Positions 52,037 to 63,556 of a stretch of 64,000 bases of DNA are shown one piece after another. Below the pieces are notes generated by a model. It did not search any database, was not told the DNA's origin, and was given only the letters and a program-made list of their open reading frames with translations. The translations under genes were made by a program, and so were the position numbers. The stretch lies in the sequence record MZ311863.1. One strand, 5' to 3'. The stretch comes from Escherichia phage vB_EcoM_LNA1. Position 1 is the stretch's first letter. Each line of letters begins with the position of its first letter.

Positions 52037-52431
52037 TAGCGAATGACCTGTGTTACCTGAATAGCTTCAGTTACTGACAAATCACCAACCGTTTCTTCTT
52101 TGACGAAGGTGAAGGTAAGTTCAACAGGCTCTTGTTCTTCCTGCTCAACCGGAATACCGTTAAGCTCATCAAAGATTGATTGAGTTGTCCAGTCTTCTCC
52201 ACCATCTGGGTAGTGGATTGCGTAAAGTGGAAACTCTAAATTATACCAAGCAAAAACAGGGCAACCATCTGCATCATCTCGACATCTGTGGAGATATGTG
52301 TTTGTACCTTCAAAATGCAAATGGAGATTACCATTCTTCTCAAATAGAAGAGCATCTTGCAGGTCTAGTTCCTCATTTTCGCTGTAACGGCTGACATCAA
52401 CCTTAACATGGATATGACTGTTATTATTCAT
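52036..52431 (-). CDS. hypothetical protein
   Basis: 131-aa ORF. Confidence 0.35.
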   Translation of the reverse strand: MNNNSHIHVKVDVSRYSENEELDLQDALLFEKNGNLHLHFEGTNTYLHRCRDDADGCPVFAWYNLEFPLYAIHYPDGGEDWTTQSIFDELNGIPVEQEEQEPVELTFTFVKEETVGDLSVTEAIQVTQVIR

Positions 52432-52822
52432 AAAAACCTCTCTCTGCTTGTTCGATTTTTGCTCTTAAAATTTCGCAATGTTGTAAATGGTAGTTAGCTT
52501 CTTGTTCATGTGTTGCTAACTGCCTTTCAAGAACAGTTTTATAATAACCTGCAAGTTGCTCTTTTGTCAATGGGTGCTCTGAAATAATATCAAGTCCACT
52601 TTCACCAAGAGGATTGAATTGTCCATGCTCATTGACATTGTAAGTCTCAAACTTGAACATACCATTGTTCACAGACTCAATAGGTGACAGTTCAACAAGC
52701 TCTACAGTAAACCGTGTATACACCTTGTCGCCTCTTGAAACTACATTGTTTCCAATGATGCGTACAAGCGAACCATTACGAGTGTATTTAAAAGTCCCAA
52801 AATCACTAGCCCAAAGCTTCAT
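52424..52822 (-). CDS. hypothetical protein
   Basis: start moved to internal Met (MKLWASDFG); the upstream part of the ORF (GSFGSLFFFS) is translation of a terminator hairpin. Confidence 0.35.
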   Translation of the reverse strand: MKLWASDFGTFKYTRNGSLVRIIGNNVVSRGDKVYTRFTVELVELSPIESVNNGMFKFETYNVNEHGQFNPLGESGLDIISEHPLTKEQLAGYYKTVLERQLATHEQEANYHLQHCEILRAKIEQAERGFYE

Positions 52823-52840
52823 AGTTTTCTCCTTAGAAAA

Positions 52841-52866
52841 AAAAAAAAGGCTCCCGAAGGAGCCTA
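52841..52866 (-). terminator. intrinsic terminator (minus strand)
   Basis: minus-strand ggctccTTCGggagcc followed by a run of 10 T. Confidence 0.6.
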
Positions 52867-52874
52867 TGAAGATA

Positions 52875-53339
52875 TTACTTTGGATATACACTGTCAAGAT
52901 AAATGTTAGCTTCCATTCTACGTCTGTTTTTCAGTCCGTTTGAAGTAACCTTCTCACCTTTGACTGTAATCTTGTTCCACCACTGCATAGCTTCTGCACA
53001 ACCTACCTTATTACCAGCATTGTGGCGCTTGATAAATGTAGAGTCCTGCATAGCTGTGATACCGATGTTGTATGTTTCACTTACAAGTGCGTCGAACTCA
53101 TTCTGAGAAGTGGGAACCTTGATAGCTTTGTTCACTGCTGTAACAAACTTTTCAACATCTGCGAGAAGATACTGTTCAGCTTGTTCAGCCGTGATTTTCA
53201 TACCCATCTTAACAGGTTTTCCGTCAATACGGATTGTACCATACCCGATTGTTGGGATTCCGGCAGAATCTTTGTAAGCCTCTAACTTCAGACCTTCAAA
53301 GAACTTAATGGCTTCTAAGCCTTTTCTTGAGAGTTGCAT
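52875..53339 (-). CDS. endolysin, GH24 lysozyme family
   Basis: 154 aa; EGLKLEAYKDSAGIPTIGYG matches lambda R / P22 gp19 lysozyme catalytic region. Confidence 0.7.
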   Translation of the reverse strand: MQLSRKGLEAIKFFEGLKLEAYKDSAGIPTIGYGTIRIDGKPVKMGMKITAEQAEQYLLADVEKFVTAVNKAIKVPTSQNEFDALVSETYNIGITAMQDSTFIKRHNAGNKVGCAEAMQWWNKITVKGEKVTSNGLKNRRRMEANIYLDSVYPK

Positions 53340-54724
53340 TATGCCCCTCCTGCTGGGTTAACTGTAACCGTTGCCGCATTAGATGTTACAGAGCCACCTG
53401 CACCAGTTACAACGCAAGTGTAGCTTCCTGCATCAGCAGCGGTTGCACCTTCTTTGGTGTAAGTTGCAGTAGTTGCGTCTGGGATGTTTTCCTCACCCTT
53501 CTTCCACTGATAGCCTGTTGCACCTGTTGCCACAACATTCAGCGTTAAGGTCTCACCTTCAGTGATTTCTTGATTGGTTGGCTGTTGAGTGATTACAGGA
53601 AGAGCATTCACAGTAACTGTCGCTGCATTAGAAGTGACTGTTGTACCACCTGCACCAGTAACTACACAGGTATATGAACCAGCATCAGCAGGGGCTGCTT
53701 TAGCTTTCGTGTAAGTTGCACCAGTTGCGCTAGGGATGTTCACATTGTCTTTCTTCCATTGGTAACCTGTTGCACCTGTAGCCTCAACGCTCAGCGTCAA
53801 GCTACTACCTTCATTGACTGCTTGGCTGGTTGGCTGCTTGGTAATCACTGGTAGAGCGTTTACTACAACAGTCGCAGGGCTAGAAGTAACAGAACCACCT
53901 GCACCCGTTACAACGCAAGTGTATGAACCTGCATCTGCTGGCAGTGCGCCAGACTTGCTATAAGTAGCTTCTGTAGCTGAAGGGATGTCAGAGCCATCTT
54001 TCTTCCATTGGTAACCTGTTGCACCTGTTGCAGCCACTTCCAAGTTGATATTCCCACCCTCATTGATGGTCTGGCTAGAAGGTTGCTGTGTAATCACAGG
54101 TAGTGCATTAACAGTAACTGTTGCCGCGTCTGAAGTAACACTTGTCCCAGCCTCTCCAGATACAACACAAGTATATGAACCAGCATCGGCAGGTACTACA
54201 GATTGTTTTGTATAAGTTGCAGAAGTGGCACTGGAGATATCCTCACCACCCTTCTTCCATTGATATCCAGTGGCGTTAGTTGCAAGAACGCTTAGGGTAA
54301 GTGTGCCACCCTCATTAACTGTTTGGTTTGTTGGTTGCTGAGTAATTGCTGGTGGCTTAATAGCATCCTTCAGCTTAGCATTCAACATTGAGAACGGCTT
54401 AACTCTTGCCAACCATTCACAATACACTGTATCAACGTCTTTACCATTGATAATTGCATATTGTAAATCCATGAAGAAGTCAGAAGTTCTCATTTGAGCA
54501 CCGACGCTGTAAAGCAAATCATCACTAAAAGGAACTTTATAGTCTGGTTTGTAGTCAAACTTCTCAACTTCTGCGATATCAGCTTCAGGCCAATATGAGC
54601 TATAGGTTAGTGGTAAAATAGCCTCTTGATATGTTCTAAAATCATATCTCTTACCAGCCTTTACGTTTGCAATGAAGCCCTTCACAAACTCTTTGAAGTC
54701 TGGGTAAGTCTTTGCTTTAATCAT
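53339..54724 (-). CDS. protein with four tandem Ig-like repeats
   Basis: 461 aa; about 170-aa N-terminal domain then four ~95-aa repeats each containing ATGYQWKK...ADAGSYTCVV (Ig/I-set-like); underlying DNA 53357-54347 is tandemly repeated. Confidence 0.5.
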   Translation of the reverse strand: MIKAKTYPDFKEFVKGFIANVKAGKRYDFRTYQEAILPLTYSSYWPEADIAEVEKFDYKPDYKVPFSDDLLYSVGAQMRTSDFFMDLQYAIINGKDVDTVYCEWLARVKPFSMLNAKLKDAIKPPAITQQPTNQTVNEGGTLTLSVLATNATGYQWKKGGEDISSATSATYTKQSVVPADAGSYTCVVSGEAGTSVTSDAATVTVNALPVITQQPSSQTINEGGNINLEVAATGATGYQWKKDGSDIPSATEATYSKSGALPADAGSYTCVVTGAGGSVTSSPATVVVNALPVITKQPTSQAVNEGSSLTLSVEATGATGYQWKKDNVNIPSATGATYTKAKAAPADAGSYTCVVTGAGGTTVTSNAATVTVNALPVITQQPTNQEITEGETLTLNVVATGATGYQWKKGEENIPDATTATYTKEGATAADAGSYTCVVTGAGGSVTSNAATVTVNPAGGA

Positions 54725-55092
54725 TTCTTTTTAGCCTCTAAATGTGCGTTTAATCTAAAATAACCTTTATGATGTGAAGATACATCGCCGACAACAATAC
54801 CTTTAATCTCATAACCCTTACCAATCACATATTGGATATCCATAAGAAATCTACCAAGACCAACAATATGAAACATTGGATATAATAGATTTTCAGAATC
54901 TGGAATGTGCATTTCAGGGTTGTAGGCAGGTTGTTCACTTGTTGGTGTGATATCTTCTTCAGGCCATTTACTTAGTCTCCATGTCAAAGGTGTTGGGATA
55001 ACATCACTAAGATTGTACCTTTCACCCTTTTTCACAGAATTGATGTAGGATTGTAGGAAGCAGTAAAAGTCTTTTGCACTCTTAGCCTTCAT
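54721..55092 (-). CDS. paralogue of the N-terminal domain of the Ig-repeat protein
   Basis: 123 aa; shares KAK..F..F...I..VK.G.RY and FLMDIQY(V/A)I blocks with N-terminus of 53339-54724 product. Confidence 0.4.
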   Translation of the reverse strand: MKAKSAKDFYCFLQSYINSVKKGERYNLSDVIPTPLTWRLSKWPEEDITPTSEQPAYNPEMHIPDSENLLYPMFHIVGLGRFLMDIQYVIGKGYEIKGIVVGDVSSHHKGYFRLNAHLEAKKK

Positions 55093-55140
55093 TAAATATC
55101 CTTATAAATAGTAAAAGGGGTATCAACCCCCTATCTACAC

Positions 55141-55731
55141 TTAAGCCTTAGTCTTAAGTAGGTTCTTAAGTTTTTTGAGATTCATACTCTCATCGAACTT
55201 AAAACCAAATCCATTGACATAATCAATGAACTCGGATTTTTTGCTAAGTGATAGCGCATAATCCATATCAAAGCTGTTACTTGTTTCTGCGTCTGGACTA
55301 GAGTTCACATCAAATGAAATTTCTGTAGGCTCTTGTTTGCTTTTTCTCATATTATCCACTAATAAGCAGGTATAGTTTGCTGGATAGAAGTTCACACTCC
55401 CGTCAACGTAGCTATACTTATTATTGTGAATAAGGTTGGAAAATACCTTAAGAAATGTTTCTGAGTCGTGGCATACAAGCTTGAATTGACTAGACTCTCC
55501 AAGAGCAACTAATGAATATGGACTTTCACTATCAAAGGCATAGTTTGGATTCGATGCCGTTACTGTTACACGCATCAAATTATTAGCGATGGTTTTTTGT
55601 TTAAAAGAGTTTTGAACATAGAAAAGACCTCTGTCACACTGGTTGACTAACTCTTTCAAGAGGTCATTTGCATATGGTGAATTAATTGATACAGAGCCAT
55701 CACTATTGTAATTAAAAGTTACTGTTAACAT
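55141..55731 (-). CDS. hypothetical protein
   Basis: 196-aa ORF. Confidence 0.35.
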   Translation of the reverse strand: MLTVTFNYNSDGSVSINSPYANDLLKELVNQCDRGLFYVQNSFKQKTIANNLMRVTVTASNPNYAFDSESPYSLVALGESSQFKLVCHDSETFLKVFSNLIHNNKYSYVDGSVNFYPANYTCLLVDNMRKSKQEPTEISFDVNSSPDAETSNSFDMDYALSLSKKSEFIDYVNGFGFKFDESMNLKKLKNLLKTKA

Positions 55732-56350: not shown

Positions 56351-56722
56351 ATGAAAAACAGAACAAACAAAGGCCAGTTTAAAAAAGGCCAATCTGGAAA
56401 CCCATCTGGAAGACCAAAAGGCTCTCGTAACAAAAGCTCACTTGTAAAAGCTCAACTGACCATTGATAATTCTGCTGAGTTTGCTGCAAAGCTGTTTGAG
56501 GCAATTGTTACAAGGGATGCTGCTAAGCTTGCAGAGTTCGGGTTAAACACAGATGACGTAACCATCAAGAGTATGATTGAGGTCGGTAAAACCATCTTTA
56601 CTCACTCAGCAGGTGAGATGAAAGCACTTGCAGCAGACACTAAGAAAACCCCTGATAATGGTGGTCAGCCACAGACAGATAACAAACCAACGTTCTCTGC
56701 TGTAGCGACTCTCAAAAAATAA
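56351..56722 (+). CDS. hypothetical protein with GNPSGRPKG motif (DUF5681-like)
   Basis: 123 aa; N-terminal KGQFKKGQSGNPSGRPKGSRN, a motif I recall from a phage/plasmid DUF family. Confidence 0.35.
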   Translation: MKNRTNKGQFKKGQSGNPSGRPKGSRNKSSLVKAQLTIDNSAEFAAKLFEAIVTRDAAKLAEFGLNTDDVTIKSMIEVGKTIFTHSAGEMKALAADTKKTPDNGGQPQTDNKPTFSAVATLKK

Positions 56723-56803
56723 TTTTAAAAGGTGTTGACAGACTCTGCAAAGTTGTTCTAAAGTCTGTCACATCAAACAACAAATGAGAGAAGAGAGTAA
56801 AAT

Positions 56804-58219
56804 ATGAGCGAATTATTCAAACATGCGCACCTTCATGCAGGTCGAACTGAAAATGGTGCTGTAAACCATACTTCATCAATGTCTGCTCTTGTGGACTTTT
56901 ACAAAGCTGCTGGTTCAAGCCGTAGCAATGTAGAAATCTTACCAGACTTGTTCTACAAAGCTTTGCGTGAGGATGTTGATGTTGCAGTTCGTATTTTGCT
57001 TCACATGCGAGATGTACGAGAAGGTATGGGTGAGCGTAAAGCCTTCAGAACTGTTTTACTTAAAGCAATCGAAGATAAAGTTTTAGAGCCTACACAGGTT
57101 CTTCGTATTATGGATAAGATTGCAGAACTTGGTCGTTTTGATGACTTCAAAATCTTTGTAGGTACTCGTTTCGAAACAGATGCCTTCAAGCATTTAGAAG
57201 CAGCATTACTAGACCCTGCAACAGCAGGTTTGGCAGCCAAGTGGTTACCACGAGTCAAACCACGTCATAAGCAGTTTGTAAAACGTTTCTGCAAGTTTGC
57301 CAACTTGAGTGAGAAAGAGTACCGCACACTGTTGTCTGCACTGTCTGATACAGTTGAGCAAAAAATCTCTGCTAATGAGTTTGGTAAGATTGACTACAGT
57401 AAGATTCCTTCACTTGCTGCTGCACGTTACCAAAAACTCTTTAACCGTAAAGATGGGGAACGTTACAAAGCTTACATCGAGTCCCTCTCAAAAGGTGAGG
57501 CTAAGATTAATGCTGGTGCTGTTTACCCATACGATGTGATTAAATCTATCAAGTATGGTAATGCAGATGTTGCTAATGAGCAGTGGAAAGCACTACCAAA
57601 CTGGATGGCAGAAGGTGAAAACATCCTGTGTATGACTGATGTTTCAAGCTCAATGTCTTGGGTGAATCTTGGCTCAATTACTGCCCTTGATATTGGTGTA
57701 TCACTTGCCTTGTATGTAGCAGAACGCAATACAGGTTGCTTCAAGGATGAGTTAATGGTTTATTCAACAAACCCTCACTTCATCGAACTGAGTGGTGATT
57801 TACGAAACCGTCATCGTCAGGTGATGCGACATGTTGAATATGGCTCAACTAACTTACAAGCAGCTTTTGACCGCATTCTTGAGGTAGGTAAGAGAAACAA
57901 CTTGACTCAGAAAGATATGCCAAGTAAGCTTATCATCTTCTCTGATATGGAGTTCAATCAGGTTGATGGTGCAAATGGTCGTACAAACTTTGAAGCAATT
58001 CAGAGTAAGTACAAAAAAGCTGGATACGAAATGCCACAACTAGTATTCTGGTACTTAGCAAACCGTAATGGTACTTGCGAAGTGTCTGTTAAGGATAATG
58101 GTGTAGCAATGGTATCGGGGTTCTCTCCAGCCACTTTAAAAGCTCTGCTTGGTGGTGAGAAGTTTGACCCAATCAGCGTAATGCTTAAAGCAGTAATGAT
58201 TGACCGTTATATCTGGTAA
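56804..58219 (+). CDS. vWA (MIDAS) domain protein, possibly TROVE/Ro-like
   Basis: 471 aa; C-terminal half has MIDAS motif DVSSSMS and downstream IIFSDMEFN; N-terminal helical domain unassigned. Confidence 0.45.
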   Translation: MSELFKHAHLHAGRTENGAVNHTSSMSALVDFYKAAGSSRSNVEILPDLFYKALREDVDVAVRILLHMRDVREGMGERKAFRTVLLKAIEDKVLEPTQVLRIMDKIAELGRFDDFKIFVGTRFETDAFKHLEAALLDPATAGLAAKWLPRVKPRHKQFVKRFCKFANLSEKEYRTLLSALSDTVEQKISANEFGKIDYSKIPSLAAARYQKLFNRKDGERYKAYIESLSKGEAKINAGAVYPYDVIKSIKYGNADVANEQWKALPNWMAEGENILCMTDVSSSMSWVNLGSITALDIGVSLALYVAERNTGCFKDELMVYSTNPHFIELSGDLRNRHRQVMRHVEYGSTNLQAAFDRILEVGKRNNLTQKDMPSKLIIFSDMEFNQVDGANGRTNFEAIQSKYKKAGYEMPQLVFWYLANRNGTCEVSVKDNGVAMVSGFSPATLKALLGGEKFDPISVMLKAVMIDRYIW

Positions 58220-58385: not shown

Positions 58386-58462
58386 CTCTGTTTAGCTCAG
58401 CTTGGTAGAGCGTTCCGTTTGGGGCGGTAAGGCCGGAGGTTCAAGTCCTCCAACAGAGACCA
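58386..58462 (+). tRNA. tRNA-Pro (UGG)
   Basis: manual fold: acceptor ctctgtt/aacagag (C1-G72), D-arm gctcagcttggtagagc, anticodon loop tttgggg, T-arm ggagg-ttcaagt-cctcc, CCA encoded. Confidence 0.65.
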
Positions 58463-58469
58463 AATTAAT

Positions 58470-58547
58470 GTTCCAGTAGACAAAATGGTATAGTCACCAC
58501 TCTTTCAAAGTGGATATTTGAGGGTTCAAATCCCTTCTGGAACGCCA
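58470..58547 (+). tRNA. tRNA-Glu (UUC)
   Basis: acceptor gttccag/ctggaac, anticodon arm ccact-ctttcaa-agtgg, T-loop ttcaaat. Confidence 0.6.
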
Positions 58548-58552
58548 GTTTT

Positions 58553-58630
58553 GACAGAAGACCAATTACAGCAAACTTAATCTTATTCATCTGAAGGTAA
58601 ATCGGACAAAGAAGAGATTTGGTCTGGTCA
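58553..58630 (+). repeat. inter-tRNA repeated element (copy a)
   Basis: gACAGAAGACCaaTTACAGCAA ... tttGGTCTGGtca; same 5' and 3' motifs recur in 3 further units. Confidence 0.5.
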
Positions 58631-58638
58631 TTAAGAAT

Positions 58639-58715
58639 TGCGGGTATAGAGAAAGGGCGTCTCACATGTCTCATTAGCATGGTATCGGCAGGTTCGACTC
58701 CTGCACCCGCCTCCA
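58639..58715 (+). tRNA. tRNA with CAU anticodon (Met or Ile2-type)
   Basis: D-arm gaga-aagggcg-tctc, anticodon arm catgt-ctcatta-gcatg, T-arm gcagg-ttcgact-cctgc; acceptor pairing imperfect, exact ends uncertain. Confidence 0.5.
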
Positions 58716-58720
58716 AATTT

Positions 58721-58790
58721 TACAGAAGACCGTTTACAGCAATATTTATTAAATTTTTAGCGGAAAAATTGAAAGATACGGTCTGGTAAT
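58721..58790 (+). repeat. inter-tRNA repeated element (copy b)
   Basis: tACAGAAGACCgtTTACAGCAA ... acGGTCTGGtaat. Confidence 0.5.
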
Positions 58791-58799
58791 ACTAAATAT

Positions 58800-58876
58800 G
58801 GTTAGGAAGCACATAAGGTATGTGCGGTCGCCTGTTAAGCGAATGGCACAGGGTTCGAATCCCTGACTAACCGCCA
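58800..58876 (+). tRNA. tRNA-Asn (GUU)
   Basis: anticodon loop ctgttaa, T-arm caggg-ttcgaat-ccctg, acceptor ggttagg/actaacc, CCA encoded. Confidence 0.65.
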
Positions 58877-58885
58877 AATTTAAAT

Positions 58886-58973
58886 GTGTCGTTATCCCGT
58901 AGATGGTAGCGGTGGGGACTGTAAATCCCTTGTCATTGAGACTCGGTAGGTTCGACTCCTACACGGCACACCA
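58886..58973 (+). tRNA. tRNA-Tyr (GUA), long variable arm
   Basis: 88 nt; anticodon arm gggga-ctgtaaa-tccct, T-arm gtagg-ttcgact-cctac, acceptor gtgtcgt/acggcac. Confidence 0.6.
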
Positions 58974-58994
58974 ATTTTGATAGGGCTACTTAGC

Positions 58995-59030
58995 CCCTCC
59001 CTTAAAGGGTTCTTACGAGTATCCTTTAAA
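58995..59030 (+). repeat. palindromic element AAGGGTTCTTACGAG..TCCTT (copy 1)
   Basis: cccttaaagggttcttacgagtatcctttaaagg; second copy at 62443. Confidence 0.5.
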
Positions 59031-59032
59031 GG

Positions 59033-59112
59033 AGCAGAAGACCAAATACAGCAAGTTACTTAAAATTTCAAGCCAATTTAATTTTGAAAAATTTAAAACT
59101 TGGTCTGGCTCA
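59033..59112 (+). repeat. inter-tRNA repeated element (copy c)
   Basis: gagCAGAAGACCaaaTACAGCAA ... ttGGTCTGGctc. Confidence 0.5.
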
Positions 59113-59120
59113 ACAAATTT

Positions 59121-59258
59121 ACAGAAGACCGTTTACAGCAAAACTTAAACAATCTATTTCTCGGTAAAGAAAAGGCGAAGATTCGACTCCTTCACTCGGC
59201 AGATGTCGAGTTGGTGTAATGGTAGCACTTAAGATGATAAACAACGGTCTGGTAATTA
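59121..59258 (+). repeat. inter-tRNA repeated element (copy d) containing tRNA-like fragments
   Basis: ACAGAAGACCgtTTACAGCAA ... T-arm-like gaagattcgactcctt and hairpin actcggcagatgtcgagt ... acGGTCTGGtaat. Confidence 0.45.
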
Positions 59259-59401
59259 CCTTTGTAGGTGAGCTATTAAGCTTACCTGTGAGTATGCGAC
59301 CACAAAGGGTGAAAGGGTAAATTCTAGATTTAAACCCAAAAAGGCACATCACTACAGACCTTAAGCAAGTCTGGGTAGCTTATCTACAAAGATAATTTAA
59401 T

Positions 59402-59477
59402 GGAAGTGTAGCAGAATGGTGATGCGGCAGACTTTTAATCTGACAGGCGATGGGTTCGATTCCCTCCACTTCTACCA
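59402..59477 (+). tRNA. tRNA-Lys (UUU)
   Basis: anticodon loop cttttaa, acceptor ggaagtg/cacttct, T-loop ttcgatt, CCA encoded. Confidence 0.6.
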
Positions 59478-59481
59478 ATAT

Positions 59482-59558
59482 GGTTCAGTCGCAGATAAGG
59501 TAATGCAAGGGTCTCATAAACCCTATGAATGTGGGTTCGATTCCCATCTGAACATCCA
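59482..59558 (+). tRNA. initiator tRNA-fMet (CAU)
   Basis: anticodon arm agGGt-ctcataa-aCCct with three consecutive G-C pairs, and 1-72 mismatch (G.A): both are bacterial initiator hallmarks. Confidence 0.6.
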
Positions 59559-59560
59559 AT

Positions 59561-59636
59561 GCTGTGAAAGCACATATGGATGTGCATTCGGCTGATAACC
59601 GAAAGGCAGAAGGTTCGAATCCTTCTCACAGTACCA
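59561..59636 (+). tRNA. tRNA-Ile (GAU)
   Basis: anticodon arm ttcgg-ctgataa-ccgaa, T-arm gaagg-ttcgaat-ccttc, D-arm gcac/gtgc. Confidence 0.65.
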
Positions 59637-59651
59637 ATTTCAATAAAGTTG

Positions 59652-59680
59652 TTGACATTGAGATGTGACTACTTTATACT
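59652..59680 (+). promoter_or_regulatory. strong sigma70-consensus promoter
   Basis: TTGACA-17 nt-TATACT; followed by about 200 nt with no ORF before next tRNA. Confidence 0.55.
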
Positions 59681-59884
59681 AACCTTAGTTTTCGTTGCGT
59701 AGCGTCTATTTTGCAAATTTAAAATAAATGCAAACGACAATGTTTTTCTGGCAGTAGCTTAATAGGCTAAACACCAGTGAGGTCTTCCAATCCCTCATCA
59801 AAGAATTTGGCGTACTCGCCCACGGTATGGTTAATAAGGTGGGCATCTTTAAGGGCTTTCTAAGAGAGTCTTTAAAGATAATTA

Positions 59885-59966
59885 CGGGGCGTATCTCAGC
59901 TGTCTTCTAAACAGCCGTTAACCGAGTAAGTGGAGTATGCGGGTTCGAGTCCTGCCGCCTCGACCA
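59885..59966 (+). tRNA. atypical tRNA-like gene (possible Arg UCU-type hairpin)
   Basis: good 7-bp acceptor cggggcg/cgcctcg and T-arm gcggg-ttcgagt-cctgc with CCA, but internal arms non-canonical; hairpin gctgt-cttctaa-acagc looks like an anticodon arm. Confidence 0.35.
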
Positions 59967-60115
59967 ATTTAGTTAGCAGATTACTTAGACGACCTAAGCG
60001 GGTCTTCCTGTAGGGAGGTGGTCTGTATCTCATGTTTTCCAGAACATGTAAATAATCTGAGAAGGGGCTTTACAGTGTTGAGATAATACGGTAAGCTTCG
60101 AATTATAGTTTTAAT

Positions 60116-60186
60116 AGGGGTGAGCTATGGCAGCAATAGAGTCTCCAAAATTCTTGATTAGAGTTCGAATCTCTCCACCCCTGCCA
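60116..60186 (+). tRNA. tRNA-Trp (CCA)
   Basis: starts aggggtg, anticodon loop ctccaaa, ends caccccctgcca; closely parallels E. coli tRNA-Trp ends. Confidence 0.7.
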
Positions 60187-60200
60187 GAACAGGTGCTTGT

Positions 60201-60605
60201 ATGAAACTTTGTAGAAAATGTTCTCAAGAAAAGCCTTTAAGCTGCTTTCATAAAAGGGGTAATGGCTATCAGTCTGCTTGCAAAGATTGTAAAGCTAAGT
60301 ACTCAGCAAAGAGATACAAAGAAGACCCTACTTATAAAGCAAAAAGAAAAGTTAGGGCAAAATATGACAAAAAGAGGAACAGAGAGTTCCTTAGTAGATA
60401 TAAAAAGTTTTGCAAATGCAGGATGTGTGGCGAATCTGAGCCAGTAGCTTTGGATTTTCATCACTTAGACCCTAAAGAGAAAGATTTTGCTCCAAGCAAT
60501 CTTAAAACTTACTCTAGAGGCACTATTAAGCGTGAAGTCCGTAAGTGTGTTGTGCTTTGTTCAAACTGTCATAGGAAAGTTCATGCAGGACTGTTAAGTA
60601 TTTAA
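60201..60605 (+). CDS. HNH endonuclease inside tRNA cluster
   Basis: 134 aa; Zn-ribbon CRKC...CKDC and DFHHLDP...CSNCHRKVH HNH motif. Confidence 0.6.
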   Translation: MKLCRKCSQEKPLSCFHKRGNGYQSACKDCKAKYSAKRYKEDPTYKAKRKVRAKYDKKRNREFLSRYKKFCKCRMCGESEPVALDFHHLDPKEKDFAPSNLKTYSRGTIKREVRKCVVLCSNCHRKVHAGLLSI

Positions 60606-60618
60606 CAGTCTTATTAGG

Positions 60619-60706
60619 GGTAGGTAGCGGCTAATGGTAGCCAAACTGTCTTGAAAACAGTTGCCACTGTAGAGATACGGTGAGGGTTCGACTCCTTTAC
60701 TTACCG
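60619..60706 (+). tRNA. tRNA-Ser (UGA), long variable arm
   Basis: 88 nt; anticodon arm actgt-cttgaaa-acagt; long variable arm; T-loop ttcgact; CCA not encoded. Confidence 0.6.
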
Positions 60707-60962
60707 CCTAATAAGATTTTAAAGCCAAGCTTCATTCGGATGTCGCTTTGGTATCCCTCGTGTTGTCTAACACATTGATAAAACACCTAGTAGGTGTCAC
60801 GGAGAAGAGATAATATCAAGCTCTCCAAAGGTTCTAGTCGCCGGATTAAACAAGACTATGCAAAGACCTTTTTAGGTCTTTTTAGAGGGCTTCTAAGGTT
60901 ATTACAGCTTGTTGTGGAACCTTGTTGCTTAGGTTCTTAGAAGTTCTCTAAAAAGATTTAAT

Positions 60963-61040
60963 GGGAGATTGATGGTAATTGGTAAACCTATCTCGCTTAG
61001 AACGAGATGTTTGAGGGTTCGAATCCCTTGTCTCCTACCA
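60963..61040 (+). tRNA. tRNA with UAG anticodon (Leu-type) but short variable arm
   Basis: anticodon arm tctcg-cttagaa-cgaga; T-arm gaggg-ttcgaat-ccctt; discriminator A; class I length. Confidence 0.5.
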
Positions 61041-61047
61041 AATTAAT

Positions 61048-61123
61048 GCAGGTGTAGCAAAATGGTTATGCGGCTGACTCTTAATCAGTAAGACGATGGG
61101 TTCGAATCCCTCCACCTGTACCA
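61048..61123 (+). tRNA. tRNA-Lys (CUU)
   Basis: paralogue of 59402 tRNA; anticodon loop ctcttaa. Confidence 0.55.
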
Positions 61124-61129
61124 AACATT

Positions 61130-61205
61130 GGGGATGTAGTTTACATGGTTAAAACATAAGTTTTGCAAACTTAAGTACAGGGTTCAATTCCCTGCTTCTC
61201 CACCA
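61130..61205 (+). tRNA. tRNA-Ala (UGC)
   Basis: G3.U70 wobble in acceptor (Ala identity element), anticodon loop ttttgcaa, ends ctccacca. Confidence 0.7.
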
Positions 61206-61211
61206 ATTAGT

Positions 61212-61286
61212 GCATCCATAGTTTAAACGGGAAAATTACAGTCTTCCAAACTGAGGTTGAGGGTTCGATTCCCTCTGGATGCTCCA
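61212..61286 (+). tRNA. tRNA-Gly (UCC)
   Basis: acceptor gcatcca/tggatgc, anticodon loop cttccaa, discriminator U. Confidence 0.65.
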
Positions 61287-61292
61287 AATAAT

Positions 61293-61369
61293 GCTGCTTT
61301 CGTATAATTGGCTATTACACATCCCTTGTAAGGATGGAAATGCAGGTTCGAGTCCTGTGAGCAGCACCA
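61293..61369 (+). tRNA. tRNA-Thr (UGU)
   Basis: anticodon arm catcc-cttgtaa-ggatg, T-arm gcagg-ttcgagt-cctgt. Confidence 0.65.
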
Positions 61370-61371
61370 AT

Positions 61372-61462
61372 TCAGAGGTCAAGTGAAAGACCGCTGGTGT
61401 CAACTGAAGACCGTAACAAATTCCACGGAGTTGAGTTAGCGGCACAACTTCAGACCTCTTTC
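61372..61462 (+). ncRNA. candidate structured non-tRNA element
   Basis: terminal inverted repeat cagaggtc...gacctct; contains ctGAAGACCGTaACAaA related to the inter-tRNA repeat motif. Confidence 0.3.
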
Positions 61463-61464
61463 AT

Positions 61465-61539
61465 ACTCGCTTAGTTTATATGGTAAAATATCACCCTTAC
61501 AAGATGAAGAAAAAGGTTCAAGTCCTTTAGTGAGTACCA
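61465..61539 (+). tRNA. tRNA-Val (UAC)
   Basis: anticodon loop cttacaa, T-arm aaagg-ttcaagt-ccttt, acceptor actcgct/agtgagt. Confidence 0.55.
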
Positions 61540-61540
61540 T

Positions 61541-61618
61541 GTTCCAGTATCCCAATTGGCAGAGGATGCAAGCTCAAACCTTGTATTAGTGACGGTTCGA
61601 ATCCGTCTTGGAACACCA
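61541..61618 (+). tRNA. tRNA with CAA anticodon (Leu-type) but short variable arm
   Basis: anticodon arm gcaag-ctcaaac-cttgt; acceptor gttccag/ttggaac shared with the Glu tRNA at 58470; discriminator A. Confidence 0.45.
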
Positions 61619-61637
61619 ATTTTAAGAGGCTATTTAG

Positions 61638-62195
61638 ATGAGATATTTGAAGTATGCTTCATGGATTTTCCTAGCTTTACTAGAACCATTTGCAGCAGCC
61701 CTAGCAGTCATCTTAGCACCTTTCGTAGTTCCATTCTACAGTGAGAAGAAAGGGCATCTACCTTTTGGATTCAGATGGATGGAGACCTATGACAACCCGA
61801 TTGATGGTGATGAAGGCCACGTTAAAAGATGGGCTAAGATTAGAAAGATTGGTAAGCTGGGTGTCTACATGCAGAGAGTTGGATGGCTCTGGAGAAACAA
61901 AGCTTATAACTTCTCTTACCATGTATTAGGAAGAGATGTAAAAGGTGTGACTAAGTGGAAAGGTAATATCAACGTAAGTTCTGACCCTGAAGATAATCAG
62001 ACAGGTTATCTCCTAATGTGGAACAGTAATGCTTGGGGATTATTCGCTTTTATCCCATCAATTAAAGTCTTTGGTAAGCAGTTTTACTGGAGAATTTATG
62101 TTGGATGGAAACTAAAAAGCGTTGTCCCAGAAGAGAGAGCATTCTCAAGGGAAAGAGTTATGTTGGCATTCTTTATTCATCCACTGAGAAAGTAA
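61638..62195 (+). CDS. hypothetical membrane protein
   Basis: 185 aa; N-terminal hydrophobic helix WIFLALLEPFAAALAVILAPFVVPF; embedded in tRNA cluster. Confidence 0.4.
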   Translation: MRYLKYASWIFLALLEPFAAALAVILAPFVVPFYSEKKGHLPFGFRWMETYDNPIDGDEGHVKRWAKIRKIGKLGVYMQRVGWLWRNKAYNFSYHVLGRDVKGVTKWKGNINVSSDPEDNQTGYLLMWNSNAWGLFAFIPSIKVFGKQFYWRIYVGWKLKSVVPEERAFSRERVMLAFFIHPLRK

Positions 62196-62203
62196 AGATT
62201 TAA

Positions 62204-62279
62204 AGGGGATTAGTTTACAAGGTTAAAACCTCGGTCTTTGAAATCGAAGAAGTTGGTTCAATTCCAACATCCCCCGCCA
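62204..62279 (+). tRNA. tRNA-Gln (UUG)
   Basis: anticodon arm tcggt-ctttgaa-atcga, T-arm gttgg-ttcaatt-ccaac. Confidence 0.55.
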
Positions 62280-62281
62280 AT

Positions 62282-62360
62282 GCTCCATTACTCCAATTGG
62301 CAGAGAGGCCAGACTTAAAATCTGTGTTATGTATCGGTTCGAATCCGATATGGAGTACCA
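62282..62360 (+). tRNA. tRNA with UAA anticodon (Leu-type) but short variable arm
   Basis: anticodon loop cttaaaa, T-arm atcgg-ttcgaat-ccgat, discriminator A. Confidence 0.45.
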
Positions 62361-62365
62361 ATTTT

Positions 62366-62441
62366 AGCGGTATAGCATAACTGGCAATGCAGCAGTCTCT
62401 GAAGCTGTCCTATTAAGGTTCAAATCCTTATGCCGCTGCCA
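62366..62441 (+). tRNA. tRNA-Gln (CUG)
   Basis: anticodon arm gcagt-ctctgaa-gctgt, T-arm taagg-ttcaaat-cctta. Confidence 0.55.
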
Positions 62442-62442
62442 C

Positions 62443-62470
62443 TTCTAAGGGTTCTTACGAGAGTCCTTAA
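62443..62470 (+). repeat. palindromic element AAGGGTTCTTACGAG..TCCTT (copy 2)
   Basis: cttctaagggttcttacgagagtccttaaatg. Confidence 0.5.
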
Positions 62471-62471
62471 A

Positions 62472-62547
62472 TGTGGCCTTATCATAAATGGTAATGACCC
62501 ATGCTGTGAACATGGTCTATACGGGTTCAAATCCCGTAGGTCACCCC
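62472..62547 (+). tRNA. tRNA-His (GUG)
   Basis: anticodon arm ccatg-ctgtgaa-catgg, discriminator C, T-arm acggg-ttcaaat-cccgt; no encoded G-1 seen. Confidence 0.6.
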
Positions 62548-62552
62548 AATTT

Positions 62553-62629
62553 ATAGTCCAAGTAGCTTATATGGTTAAAGCGCGTGTCTGAAAAACATGA
62601 GAAGAGGGTTCAAATCCCACTGGACTACC
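62553..62629 (+). tRNA. tRNA-Phe (GAA)
   Basis: anticodon arm cgtgt-ctgaaaa-acatg, acceptor tagtcca/tggacta; 3' end assignment uncertain. Confidence 0.55.
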
Positions 62630-62646
62630 AATTTCAAAGGTGCTTA

Positions 62647-63381
62647 ATGAAAGAGATGACAGAACAAGGTAAGGAGATTTTTAATCTCTTAAAAACCGGT
62701 AAAGGGTTTTCTAACCCGCTTATTACTGGTGCAGCAGTTCTCGGTGGAACCGTAGCTGCCTCTACATCACTTGTAAGCTCTATTAGCTCTGTAACAGACC
62801 CTACAATAAAAGATAAGCTTGTTGCTGCTGGGCTTACAACAGTCCTTCTAAACAGCTTTACAACAAGCCTTACAAGCACTACAGCAACTACTAAGACCCT
62901 AACAGACTACGGTCAAAAGTCTATTGATGAGTTTTCATCACGTATGCAGGTAGCAAAGGGATACTCCAATGTTATGGGTGCAGCAGGGGAACAAGTTGGT
63001 TGTACACCATTCAGTGGTATTATGGGTGTTGCTACAGAGTATGGTCAAAAAGCTATTGGCATGATGAACAGTACACTAGATAGTGTTAATGGTGTGTTAA
63101 GTGACTTGCAAGACGCTATTGATGAGGGTCTTGATACTGTTTCTGATTTAGCTAATCAAGCTGTTAGTAAAATTAATGAAGGCATTTCAAAGATTACAGC
63201 TTATGCAGATGAAGTTGTGCAGATGATTGAAGAAGAAGCTGCCCTTATTGCAGAGTACCTTAAAACGAATATTAATGGGTTCTTAGCAGGTATCTTACCA
63301 GACTGGTTTGATGATGCCTGTAAAACTGGTGTAATTGACACTATTGCAACACCAGAAATGAAGAGCGCATTACAGAAATAA
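62647..63381 (+). CDS. hypothetical Ser/Thr-rich protein
   Basis: start moved to internal Met (MKEMTEQG) because the 5' part of the ORF overlaps tRNA-Phe. Confidence 0.4.
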   Translation: MKEMTEQGKEIFNLLKTGKGFSNPLITGAAVLGGTVAASTSLVSSISSVTDPTIKDKLVAAGLTTVLLNSFTTSLTSTTATTKTLTDYGQKSIDEFSSRMQVAKGYSNVMGAAGEQVGCTPFSGIMGVATEYGQKAIGMMNSTLDSVNGVLSDLQDAIDEGLDTVSDLANQAVSKINEGISKITAYADEVVQMIEEEAALIAEYLKTNINGFLAGILPDWFDDACKTGVIDTIATPEMKSALQK

Positions 63382-63382
63382 T

Positions 63383-63475
63383 GGAAGATTAACCCTAAAA
63401 GGTAAGGGAGCAGTTTGCTAAACTGCCAGTAGCTGAGAAATCGGTGTACCAGTTCAAGTCTGGTATCTTCCTCCA
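63383..63475 (+). tRNA. tRNA-Ser (GCU), long variable arm
   Basis: 93 nt; anticodon arm gcagt-ttgctaa-actgc, 21-nt variable arm, T-arm accag-ttcaagt-ctggt. Confidence 0.65.
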
Positions 63476-63480
63476 ATTTT

Positions 63481-63556
63481 GAATCCGTGACAGAAATGGA
63501 TATGTGCCTGTCTGCAAAACAGGTTTATAAGGGTTCAAGCCCCTTCGGATTCTCCA
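63481..63556 (+). tRNA. tRNA-Cys (GCA)
   Basis: anticodon arm cctgt-ctgcaaa-acagg, discriminator U, acceptor gaatccg/cggattc. Confidence 0.65.

Follow-up and report, generated by a model that had tools for sequence, protein, structure and literature searches.

Directly upstream of the endolysin gene of Escherichia phage vB_EcoM_LNA1 lie a gene for a 461-aa protein with Ig-like repeats and a second gene that encodes a copy of its N-terminal domain only. This arrangement raises the question of what the repeat protein does and which role a stand-alone copy of its N-terminal domain could have beside it. The stretch of 64,000 nucleotides that was analysed (sequence record MZ311863.1; hereafter the window) belongs to a Felix O1-like myophage of the genus Felixounavirus, and 248 phage records are similar to the region, nearly all of which come from Felixounavirus and its relatives. 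An earlier note on this DNA had proposed that the Ig protein is either a capsid decoration protein or adhesin, or a cell-wall-binding accessory for lysis. We consider it about 90% probable that the 461-aa protein is the capsid decoration protein Hex-Dec and that the 123-aa protein is a constrained, dispensable tandem duplicate consisting of the capsid-binding domain (CapBD) alone, which is probably absent from mature virions.

The three open reading frames exist as the earlier note had described them. The minus strand encodes a GH24 endolysin of 154 aa (52875..53339; PF00959, E = 1.1e-40) with the GH24 motif E-x8-D-x5-T at residues 15-30, the 461-aa Hex-Dec (53339..54724) and the 123-aa paralogue (54721..55092). 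The Ig protein had been placed downstream of the endolysin; the order on the minus strand is paralogue, Ig protein and endolysin, and the Ig protein therefore lies upstream of the endolysin. The stop codon of the paralogue and the start codon of Hex-Dec share an ATGA (54721..54724, minus strand), and this overlap is -4 in 25 of 27 related loci and -8 in the other two. Moreover, a conserved GAGG Shine-Dalgarno sequence is located about 11 nt before the Hex-Dec start, within the 3' end of the paralogue gene, and both genes are probably translationally coupled. The stop codon of Hex-Dec in turn overlaps the endolysin start codon (TAATG), which is also conserved among the loci. A predicted intrinsic terminator (AGGCTCCTTCGGGAGCCT followed by T10; 52848..52865, minus strand), located 10 nt past the endolysin stop codon, would close the paralogue/Hex-Dec/endolysin unit, and a terminator has been annotated at the equivalent position after the endolysin of phage Tribble. 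At the other end, a conserved G+C hairpin (55115..55132, minus strand) separates the paralogue start from an upstream 196-aa ORF, which has no match in Pfam, NCBIfam and PADLOC. In other phages, the stem of the hairpin is preserved because its two sides have changed together (GGGGGT/ACCCCT versus GGGGC/GCCCC). Hex-Dec is probably expressed as the middle gene of a tight late unit, in the order paralogue, Hex-Dec and endolysin, in which each stop codon overlaps the next start codon. A programmed -1 frameshift at an AAAAAG motif near the paralogue stop codon, generating a paralogue-Hex-Dec fusion, was considered as well and rejected: the motif is missing in 9 of the 27 loci, the Suspvirus-type loci with the -8 overlap have a different frame relation, and no fusion-sized protein has been reported.

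The identity of the 461-aa protein can be deduced from two orthologues of known structure, Hex-Dec of phage Bas63 (Escherichia phage JohannRWettstein; PDB 9ncf_S; phmmer E = 3.6e-278) and gp20 of Shigella phage Sf14 (PDB 9c2d_S; E = 6.8e-180). Its overall identity to Bas63 Hex-Dec amounts to 93%, the values for the individual domains being 99% for the CapBD (122/123), 98% for Ig1, 95% for Ig2, 69% for Ig3 and 99% for Ig4. The N-terminal domain had been estimated at about 170 aa, because the count ran to the first YQWKK motif; the CapBD comprises only about 123 aa (aa 1-123; 54356..54724, minus strand) and is followed by the first Ig domain from residue 124 onwards. Most database records assign the protein to the tail ("putative tail protein", "major tail protein"), in agreement with the label "tail protein" of the matching phrog_3995 (E = 2.6e-242), and tail tube proteins may indeed carry Ig domains too. 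However, two cryo-EM studies, carried out independently, have placed the orthologues in the hexamer density of the capsid (chain S of both PDB 9NCF and PDB 9C2D), and the authors of the Bas63 study explicitly call the tail annotation wrong (PMC12609058). A tail function has therefore hardly any probability left; the label is already refuted by the solved structures and is corrected here for Hex-Dec of this genome.

Bas63 Hex-Dec consists of an N-terminal CapBD and four predicted Ig domains, occupies facet-edge hexamers only, and its gene is located more than 10 kb away from the structural module (PMC12609058). In Sf14, the CapBD of gp20 has 118 aa, the protein was found in virions by MS, and R79 and R107 contact D221 of the capsid MCP by salt bridges (PMC11821841). 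Several of these features recur in the window: the translation of Hex-Dec contains both Arg79 and Arg107 in the CapBD as well as I-set Ig repeats, and the gene lies away from the structural module and immediately precedes the endolysin gene, as in the orthologous loci. Four Ig domains are present in the proteins of the window and Bas63, and three in Sf14 gp20. In addition, the Hex-Dec orthologue of Felix O1, ORF36, has been detected in virions as gp36 (31.6 kDa; PMC3185647), and the presence of the VpaE1 orthologue in virions can be deduced from the proteome. The CapBD of Hex-Dec is under strong constraint (dN/dS = 0.044). By homology to Bas63 and Sf14, it would occupy the depression at the centre of those 60 hexamers of a T=9 head that are pentamer-proximal (quasi-threefold) and leave the 20 hexamers on the true threefold axes free of Hex-Dec. 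Arg79 and Arg107 would hold the protein in place via salt bridges to Asp221 of the MCP, a residue known from Sf14, since the MCP gene lies outside the window. The protein can thus be classified, as far as sequence comparison allows, as a monomeric, Hoc-like capsid decoration protein, which bears out the first of the two functions proposed for it (PMC12609058, PMC11821841). The 461-aa Ig protein is ordinary because it is the already-solved Hex-Dec of Felix O1-like phages, and it raises no new issue.

Hex-Dec resembles Hoc of phage T4, which is also a monomer at the hexamer centre with a small capsid-binding domain and a projecting string of Ig-like domains, and which is dispensable and varies in the number of Ig domains among relatives (PMC10385173). 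In contrast to Hex-Dec with its N-terminal CapBD, the CapBD of Hoc is C-terminal. Moreover, the fold of the Hex-Dec CapBD is topologically distinct and larger and has pseudo-C2 symmetry according to the Bas63 authors (PMC12609058), and Hex-Dec is present on only 60 of the 80 hexamers. No Hoc chain was among the Foldseek matches of the paralogue model, and the PHROG matches named "Hoc-like" are confined to the Ig region of Hex-Dec (residues 286-458). T4 Hoc is thus a functional analogue of Hex-Dec and not a member of the same family. Another monomer located at hexamer centres is pb10 of phage T5 (PDB 5LXK, 8ZVI), whose Ig domain shows detectable homology to the Ig region of Hex-Dec (E = 2e-13 and 5e-13). 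However, pb10 has one Ig domain, and its capsid-binding domain has no detectable relation to that of Hex-Dec, the match being restricted to Hex-Dec aa 297-374. To our knowledge, no anchor-only paralogue of pb10 has been described.

The second proposed function, according to which the Ig protein, the paralogue or both are cell-wall-binding accessories acting with the adjacent endolysin, is very improbable. The genes are immediate and conserved neighbours with reading frames that overlap the endolysin, and Felix O1 has no holin beside the lysin, which might suggest such a role. However, in the Pfam search the Ig protein matched only Ig-type domains and the paralogue nothing; neither a LysM, SH3 or PG_binding domain nor any other that binds the cell wall was detected, and transmembrane segments are lacking too. 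The Ig protein is a capsid component: its orthologues were found by MS in purified virions (Felix O1 gp36, Sf14 gp20 and, by deduction, VpaE1) and were modelled on the capsids of Bas63 and Sf14. Moreover, the Ig domains belong to the I-set type, which is also found in other decoration proteins such as T5 pb10 (E = 2e-13). The adjacency to the endolysin reflects conserved synteny and co-expression and is no evidence for a shared function.

The sole undescribed piece of the locus is the 123-aa paralogue. As the earlier note had recognised, it corresponds to the N-terminal domain of Hex-Dec alone: it shares 35% identity over 121 aa with residues 2-119 of Hex-Dec (BLASTP, E = 6e-17) and was matched by phmmer to 9c2d_S (1.7e-11) and 9ncf_S (3e-11). 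An AF2 model derived from a 19-sequence alignment had too low a confidence (pLDDT 54.7); the prediction was repeated with 45 sequences including Hex-Dec and outgroup CapBDs, which yielded a model with two helices and a pLDDT of 83.5. With this model, Foldseek retrieved 9c2d_S and 9ncf_S (TM 0.73-0.75) and no other significant match in the PDB. The 123-aa protein is therefore predicted to be a complete CapBD lacking Ig domains. The ORF stops 3-5 residues past the CapBD, with no fused display module such as Ig, Big_2 or another tail, and all of the 51 paralogue clusters have lengths of 88-124 aa. Orthologues include Felix O1 ORF37, VpaE1 gp40 and Bas63 bas63_0125 (phrog_4463).

The paralogue occurs in Felixounavirus, Mooglevirus, Suspvirus and on a divergent 87-kb contig, and it adjoins Hex-Dec in all 27 loci. 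Outgroup Ounavirinae such as Yersinia phage vB_YenM_P778 ("head outer capsid protein"), the Pectobacterium phages Arno162 and Wc4 and the metagenomic P0099-P0103 share the CapBD family (profile E-values of 4.5e-9 to 2e-4) and carry the gene in the equivalent slot, between an ORF of 185-196 aa and the endolysin. Unlike the window, they have a single CapBD gene and lack the stand-alone paralogue, and their CapBD is fused to Big_2 domains, to one Ig domain or to a Lys/Ser-rich tail without Ig. The ORF upstream of one Big_2-fused relative was considered as an additional copy and turned out not to be a CapBD. The paralogue is thus best regarded as a CapBD-only tandem duplicate that probably arose within the Felixounavirus/Mooglevirus/Suspvirus clade.

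Purifying selection acts on the duplicate (dN/dS = 0.13), whose most conserved part is the invariant segment L69-G80. It is also dispensable: the gene is pseudogenised in fKMPT1, vB_CECAV_041 and EcF-vB, all of which are viable phages. The position of Arg79 is occupied by Gly78, which is invariant in 19 of 19 paralogues, and that of Arg107 by His, Gln or Arg. However, the single-copy outgroup CapBDs P0102 and P0103 also lack an Arg at the position equivalent to 79, and the loss of this residue is therefore no proof that capsid binding has been lost. A putative metal site formed by Cys11, His75 and His108 of the paralogue was rejected, as His75 and His108 are not retained in a divergent paralogue.

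The paralogue appears to be absent from mature virions, as judged from two older proteomes and from the cryo-EM maps. Felix O1 ORF37 is missing from the published MS list of virion proteins (PMC3185647), and the proteins that were described for VpaE1 beyond the Felix O1 list do not include gp40, from which its absence is deduced; the proteome paper on wV8 has no relevant protein list. Neither of the cryo-EM papers mentions the paralogue, and according to both, the other hexamers show no density (PMC12609058, PMC11821841). In these data, a protein present at 20 copies or less, or lost during CsCl purification, could escape detection. The main text of the PhageMaP study does not mention Bas63 g125 either; in that study, g124 is more essential on E. 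coli S17-1 by score (bioRxiv 10.1101/2024.10.10.617714). The paralogue could be viewed as an overlooked, Ig-less minor virion protein, bound to the 20 true-threefold hexamers or to another low-copy site. Its complete CapBD fold, its co-expression and translational coupling with Hex-Dec and the basic patch retained at positions 107-109 (H/Q/R, H/K, K) are in line with this idea, as are outgroup phages whose single CapBD protein, presumably a functional decoration, ends in a tail without Ig and lacks Arg79 too. Moreover, a helix-rich density with C3 symmetry at the tip of the spike is unassigned in Bas63 and Sf14, and the paralogue model contains two helices; however, helix count alone makes this link. 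We regard a minor virion protein as unlikely, given that neither cryo-EM study has density on other hexamers, that the paralogue is missing among the Felix O1 virion proteins, where proteins of 9.7-13 kDa were detected, as well as among the VpaE1 additions, and that viable phages have lost the gene.

Alternatively, the paralogue may have been neofunctionalised off the capsid, for instance in host takeover, anti-defence or lysis timing, with only the fold being inherited. This scenario deserves to be taken seriously, even if we would not bet on it. The evolutionary rate of the paralogue is about three times that of the CapBD of Hex-Dec (dN/dS of 0.13 versus 0.044), and the window and the divergent phage share 43% identity in the paralogue versus 59% in the CapBD. 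The capsid-contacting Arg79 has been replaced, and the gene recombines independently of Hex-Dec, being 80% identical to its Bas63 counterpart versus 99% for the adjacent CapBD. It is also situated among accessory genes beside the endolysin. However, no defence, anti-defence or other family was matched in Pfam, NCBIfam and PADLOC, and the protein has no transmembrane segment. Furthermore, the strict adjacency and coupling in 27 of 27 loci argue that its function is linked to that of Hex-Dec.

Our best guess is that the duplicate is a non-structural partner acting during assembly or in regulation. With the face of the fold that Hex-Dec uses, it might bind something else, either the capsid hexamer in a different state or the Hex-Dec protein. 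A more specific and rather improbable version of this proposal is that the paralogue is a regulator or placeholder of capsid decoration, which controls the time and place at which the Ig fibres are attached. For this purpose, it would transiently occupy hexamer centres, in procapsids or at the true-threefold hexamers, or cap Hex-Dec. If true, this could help to account for the occupancy of 60 of the 80 hexamers. In a still weaker variant, the paralogue would form the helix-rich spike-tip trimer of Bas63 and Sf14. The paralogue is a small and clean puzzle: a constrained and coupled copy of a capsid anchor that is apparently off the capsid and for which natural knockouts are known. A protein that modulates decoration or assembly would represent a new type of accessory factor, and a modulator of decoration would be relevant to phage display and engineering with the Hex-Dec anchor; a neofunctionalised protein would merely be another accessory gene.

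The four tandem Ig-like repeats noticed previously in the 461-aa protein were also found by Pfam, in four stretches for each of Ig_3 (E = 1.9e-43), Ig_2 (1.5e-35) and I-set (3.3e-32). The array (53357..54355, minus strand) had been given as 53357-54347, which agrees with the units as delimited here. It consists of four units of 82-84 aa: Ig1 (aa 124-207; 54104-54355), Ig2 (aa 208-290; 53855-54103), Ig3 (aa 291-374; 53603-53854) and Ig4 (aa 375-456; 53357-53602). Tandem Repeats Finder detected a period of 252 bp at 53376-54028 (73% matches, score 585). The domains would project outward as a flexible fibre, which by analogy with T4 Hoc most likely provides weak adhesion to surfaces, for instance to the glycans of mucus or the envelopes of bacteria. 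The DNA repeats had been called recombination-prone. This holds in a moderate sense and not in a strong one, because the units, which are pairwise 70-77% identical in protein, are only 63-73% identical in DNA, with longest exact shared stretches of 11-32 nt. The expected variation in copy number was indeed observed: one Ig domain is present in 3, two in 11, three in 10 and four in 3 of the 27 related loci, with Hex-Dec lengths of 210-211, 294-298, 377 and 461 aa, respectively. A word-indexed protein search with the CapBD retrieved almost only clusters with one Ig domain (about 210 aa) and is biased for a census of copy number. The number of Ig domains changes between related phages by gain or loss of whole units. 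This variability has already been published and is not new, one to four Ig domains being described for Hex-Dec across the genus (PMC12609058). In comparison with Bas63, the third Ig unit of the window is another cassette, with 69% identity to Ig3 of Bas63 and 77% to Ig4 of the same protein in the window, and it is accompanied by the 80% identical allele of the neighbouring paralogue. The window therefore adds a four-Ig allele with a third Ig unit unlike that of Bas63.

Three tightly packed ORFs on the minus strand correspond to the gene trio described in the earlier note. ORF reading revealed a 123-aa ORF (54721-55092) and the 461-aa ORF of an Ig-like protein (53339-54724), followed by the gene of a 154-aa GH24 endolysin (52875-53339; PF00959, E=1.1e-40) with the catalytic E-x8-D-x5-T motif. 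The Ig protein had been placed downstream of the endolysin; however, it lies upstream in the order of transcription. The stop codon of the 123-aa ORF overlaps the start of the Ig protein gene (ATGA), whose stop codon overlaps the endolysin start (TAATG), and at both junctions the Shine-Dalgarno sequence of the downstream gene is located within the preceding gene. A strong intrinsic terminator (52865-52848, minus strand) is present 3' of the endolysin gene. At the other end, a conserved G+C hairpin (55115-55132, minus strand), whose stem is kept by paired changes in other phages, lies between a 196-aa ORF and the 123-aa ORF. With only ~24 nt between it and the ATG of the 123-aa ORF, the hairpin leaves too little space for a promoter of its own; it could act as a leaky terminator or as an element of RNA stability. 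The DNA of the region is matched by 248 phage records (60-96% identity), nearly all from Felixounavirus and close relatives with Escherichia, Salmonella, Shigella and Citrobacter as hosts; the closest is Salmonella phage PK6 (95.8%).

The Ig protein, the main object here, is already known: with a probability of about 90%, it is a capsid decoration of the Hex-Dec type. A PDB sequence search matched it over its full length to 9ncf_S, the 460-aa "immunoglobulin-like domain protein" of Bas63 (E=3.6e-278), and to 9c2d_S, the 372-aa Sf14 gp20 named "putative tail protein" (E=6.8e-180). Identity to Bas63 amounts to 99% in the capsid-binding domain (CapBD) at the N-terminus and to 98%, 95%, 69% and 99% in Ig1 to Ig4. 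Cryo-EM studies of both phages describe the orthologues as a Hoc-like decoration, which binds only the pentamer-adjacent hexamers at the facet edges (quasi-threefold), the true-threefold hexamers being without density; the Ig domains are unseen in the maps and presumed to form a flexible fibre (PMC12609058; PMC11821841). Arg79 and Arg107, which are salt-bridged to the major capsid protein at its Asp221 (PMC11821841), are both found in the translated 461-aa protein. By analogy with T4 Hoc, the Ig fibre could be adhesive. The decoration gene lies >10 kb outside the structural module, and the usual "tail protein" annotation has been stated to be wrong (PMC12609058). Of the roles considered earlier, capsid decoration is borne out, whereas a cell-wall-binding lysis accessory is rejected. 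The reading as a tail protein, taken from the annotations, is rejected as well. Virion proteomics, proposed as a check, is available from published work: Felix O1 gp36 (31.6 kDa), the orthologue encoded between ORF35 (endolysin) and ORF37, is abundant in virions (PMC3185647). In a preprint, Bas63 g124 (orthologue bas63_0124) was rated more essential with E. coli S17-1 as host than with three others (bioRxiv 10.1101/2024.10.10.617714).

The four Ig-like repeats were confirmed by Pfam (Ig_3, E=1.9e-43; I-set, 3.3e-32; four stretches each) and by a 252-bp period in Tandem Repeats Finder. They span aa 124-207, 208-290, 291-374 and 375-456, so the N-terminal domain comprises ~123 aa and not about 170 aa as had been assumed. 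Copy number varies as predicted, which is already in print (PMC12609058). The complete gene was compared at 27 loci, 25 of them on IMG/VR contigs and one each in the window and in phage Tribble: three encode one Ig unit (210/211 aa), 11 two (294/298 aa), ten three (377 aa) and three four (461 aa); internal units are gained or lost, while the first and last are mostly kept. The repeats share 70-77% identity in protein but only 63-73% in DNA, with longest exact matches of 11-32 nt. Thus, the variation is evolutionary, and the suspected proneness to recombination does not extend to hypermutability. Ig3 (53603-53854, minus strand) is 69% identical to Bas63 Ig3 but 77% to the window's own Ig4, with flanking units 95-99% identical to Bas63, which suggests a mosaic cassette that arose by independent duplication or cassette exchange in the four-Ig lineages.

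The 123-aa ORF is, as had been noticed, a paralogue of the N-terminal domain only (35% identity to Hex-Dec residues 2-119, BLASTP E=6e-17). A PDB sequence search retrieved only the two Hex-Dec chains (1.7e-11 and 3e-11). A first AF2 model was poor; a second, built from a 45-sequence alignment of both paralogous groups, reached pLDDT 83.5 and pTM 0.82. Foldseek significantly matched this model to 9c2d_S and 9ncf_S only (TM 0.73-0.75; next matches E ~0.7) and not to a housekeeping fold. Thus, as modelled, the paralogue is a complete CapBD with a fold private to this family. With 13 proteins retrieved when 1.84 billion representatives were searched exhaustively by profile, the family is very small; among the 13 are CapBDs fused to Big_2 domains, one Ig domain or a Lys/Ser-rich tail.

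At each of the 27 loci, the paralogue adjoins Hex-Dec, with an overlap of -4 in 25 and of -8 in two; it is also carried by a divergent 87-kb contig, and occurs in Felixounavirus, Mooglevirus and Suspvirus. Outgroup Ounavirinae (Yersinia phage P778, Pectobacterium phages Arno162 and Wc4, metagenomic loci L032-34) have a single CapBD gene, which occupies the corresponding slot flanked by a 185-196-aa ORF and the endolysin, indicating that the duplication arose within the enterobacterial clade. Judged from pairwise dN/dS, the paralogue (0.13) is constrained, yet evolves faster than its sister CapBD (0.044; Ig units 0.13-0.18, endolysin 0.08); between the window and a divergent phage, the two are 43% and 59% identical, respectively. 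Its most conserved stretch, L69-G80 and F82-I86, is invariant in 19 sequences and is the counterpart of the Hex-Dec segment bearing Arg79. In these sequences the Arg79 position is an invariant Gly, and that of Arg107 is His, Gln or Arg. Neofunctionalisation of the paralogue for an unrelated role is conceivable, albeit doubtful.

At the spike tip, Bas63 and Sf14 show one helix-rich C3 density that has no assigned protein and could, speculatively, be a site of the paralogue. It is quite unlikely that the paralogue is a low-copy virion protein: Felix O1 ORF37 is missing from the identified virion proteins, though proteins of 9.7-13 kDa were detected (PMC3185647), and VpaE1 adds only gp54, gp58 and gp68 to the Felix O1 set, not the orthologue gp40. 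The remaining hexamers lack density in both cryo-EM studies, neither of which mentions the paralogue gene ("paralog", gp19 and gp21 being absent from the papers; PMC12609058; PMC11821841). Natural knockouts occur in fKMPT1 (L039 2306-2497), vB_CECAV_041 (L040 2313-2497) and EcF-vB (L041): all three carry the same ~230-bp internal deletion and no longer have the ATG, with Hex-Dec and endolysin intact. Of 252 phage records, 20 gave the paralogue query no match exceeding 60% identity; three of these 20 were inspected. On the preferred reading, the paralogue would be a non-structural, dispensable partner acting during late gene expression, and would direct the conserved face of its CapBD fold at a target distinct from the quasi-threefold hexamer in its mature state. 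Neither this anchor-only copy nor the history of its duplication, its constraint and its natural knockouts were met with in the literature searched; together they represent a modest addition to a known family.

The 196-aa ORF (phrog_4034; 55141-55731, minus strand) lies directly upstream of the CapBD gene(s) in every lineage examined, including the single-CapBD outgroups, and has no match in Pfam, NCBIfam or PADLOC. A 157-aa TTG-start ORF (52424-52897, minus strand) overlaps the endolysin terminator; because its phrog_4266 match begins only at residue 26, an ATG at 52822 is the most likely start codon (132 aa; Felix O1 ORF34). The PhageMaP preprint counts the endolysin orthologue Bas63 g123 among genes that are more dispensable in several defence-system hosts, and examined whether g123 might trigger retron Ec67. 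Nearby on the plus strand, a DUF5681 ORF and a 471-aa TROVE/Ro60-like (DUF2828) protein (56351-58219) precede 24 tRNA genes (58386-63556). Rfam reports a weak tRNA at 59885-59963 (31.2 bits) without an ARAGORN call, and ARAGORN a 71-nt tRNA-Trp at 60116-60186 without an Rfam report at gathering score. The Ro60-like orthologue Bas63 gp130 was reported in a preprint to counter the ppl defence system, and its authors speculate that some of the "tRNAs" are Y RNAs.
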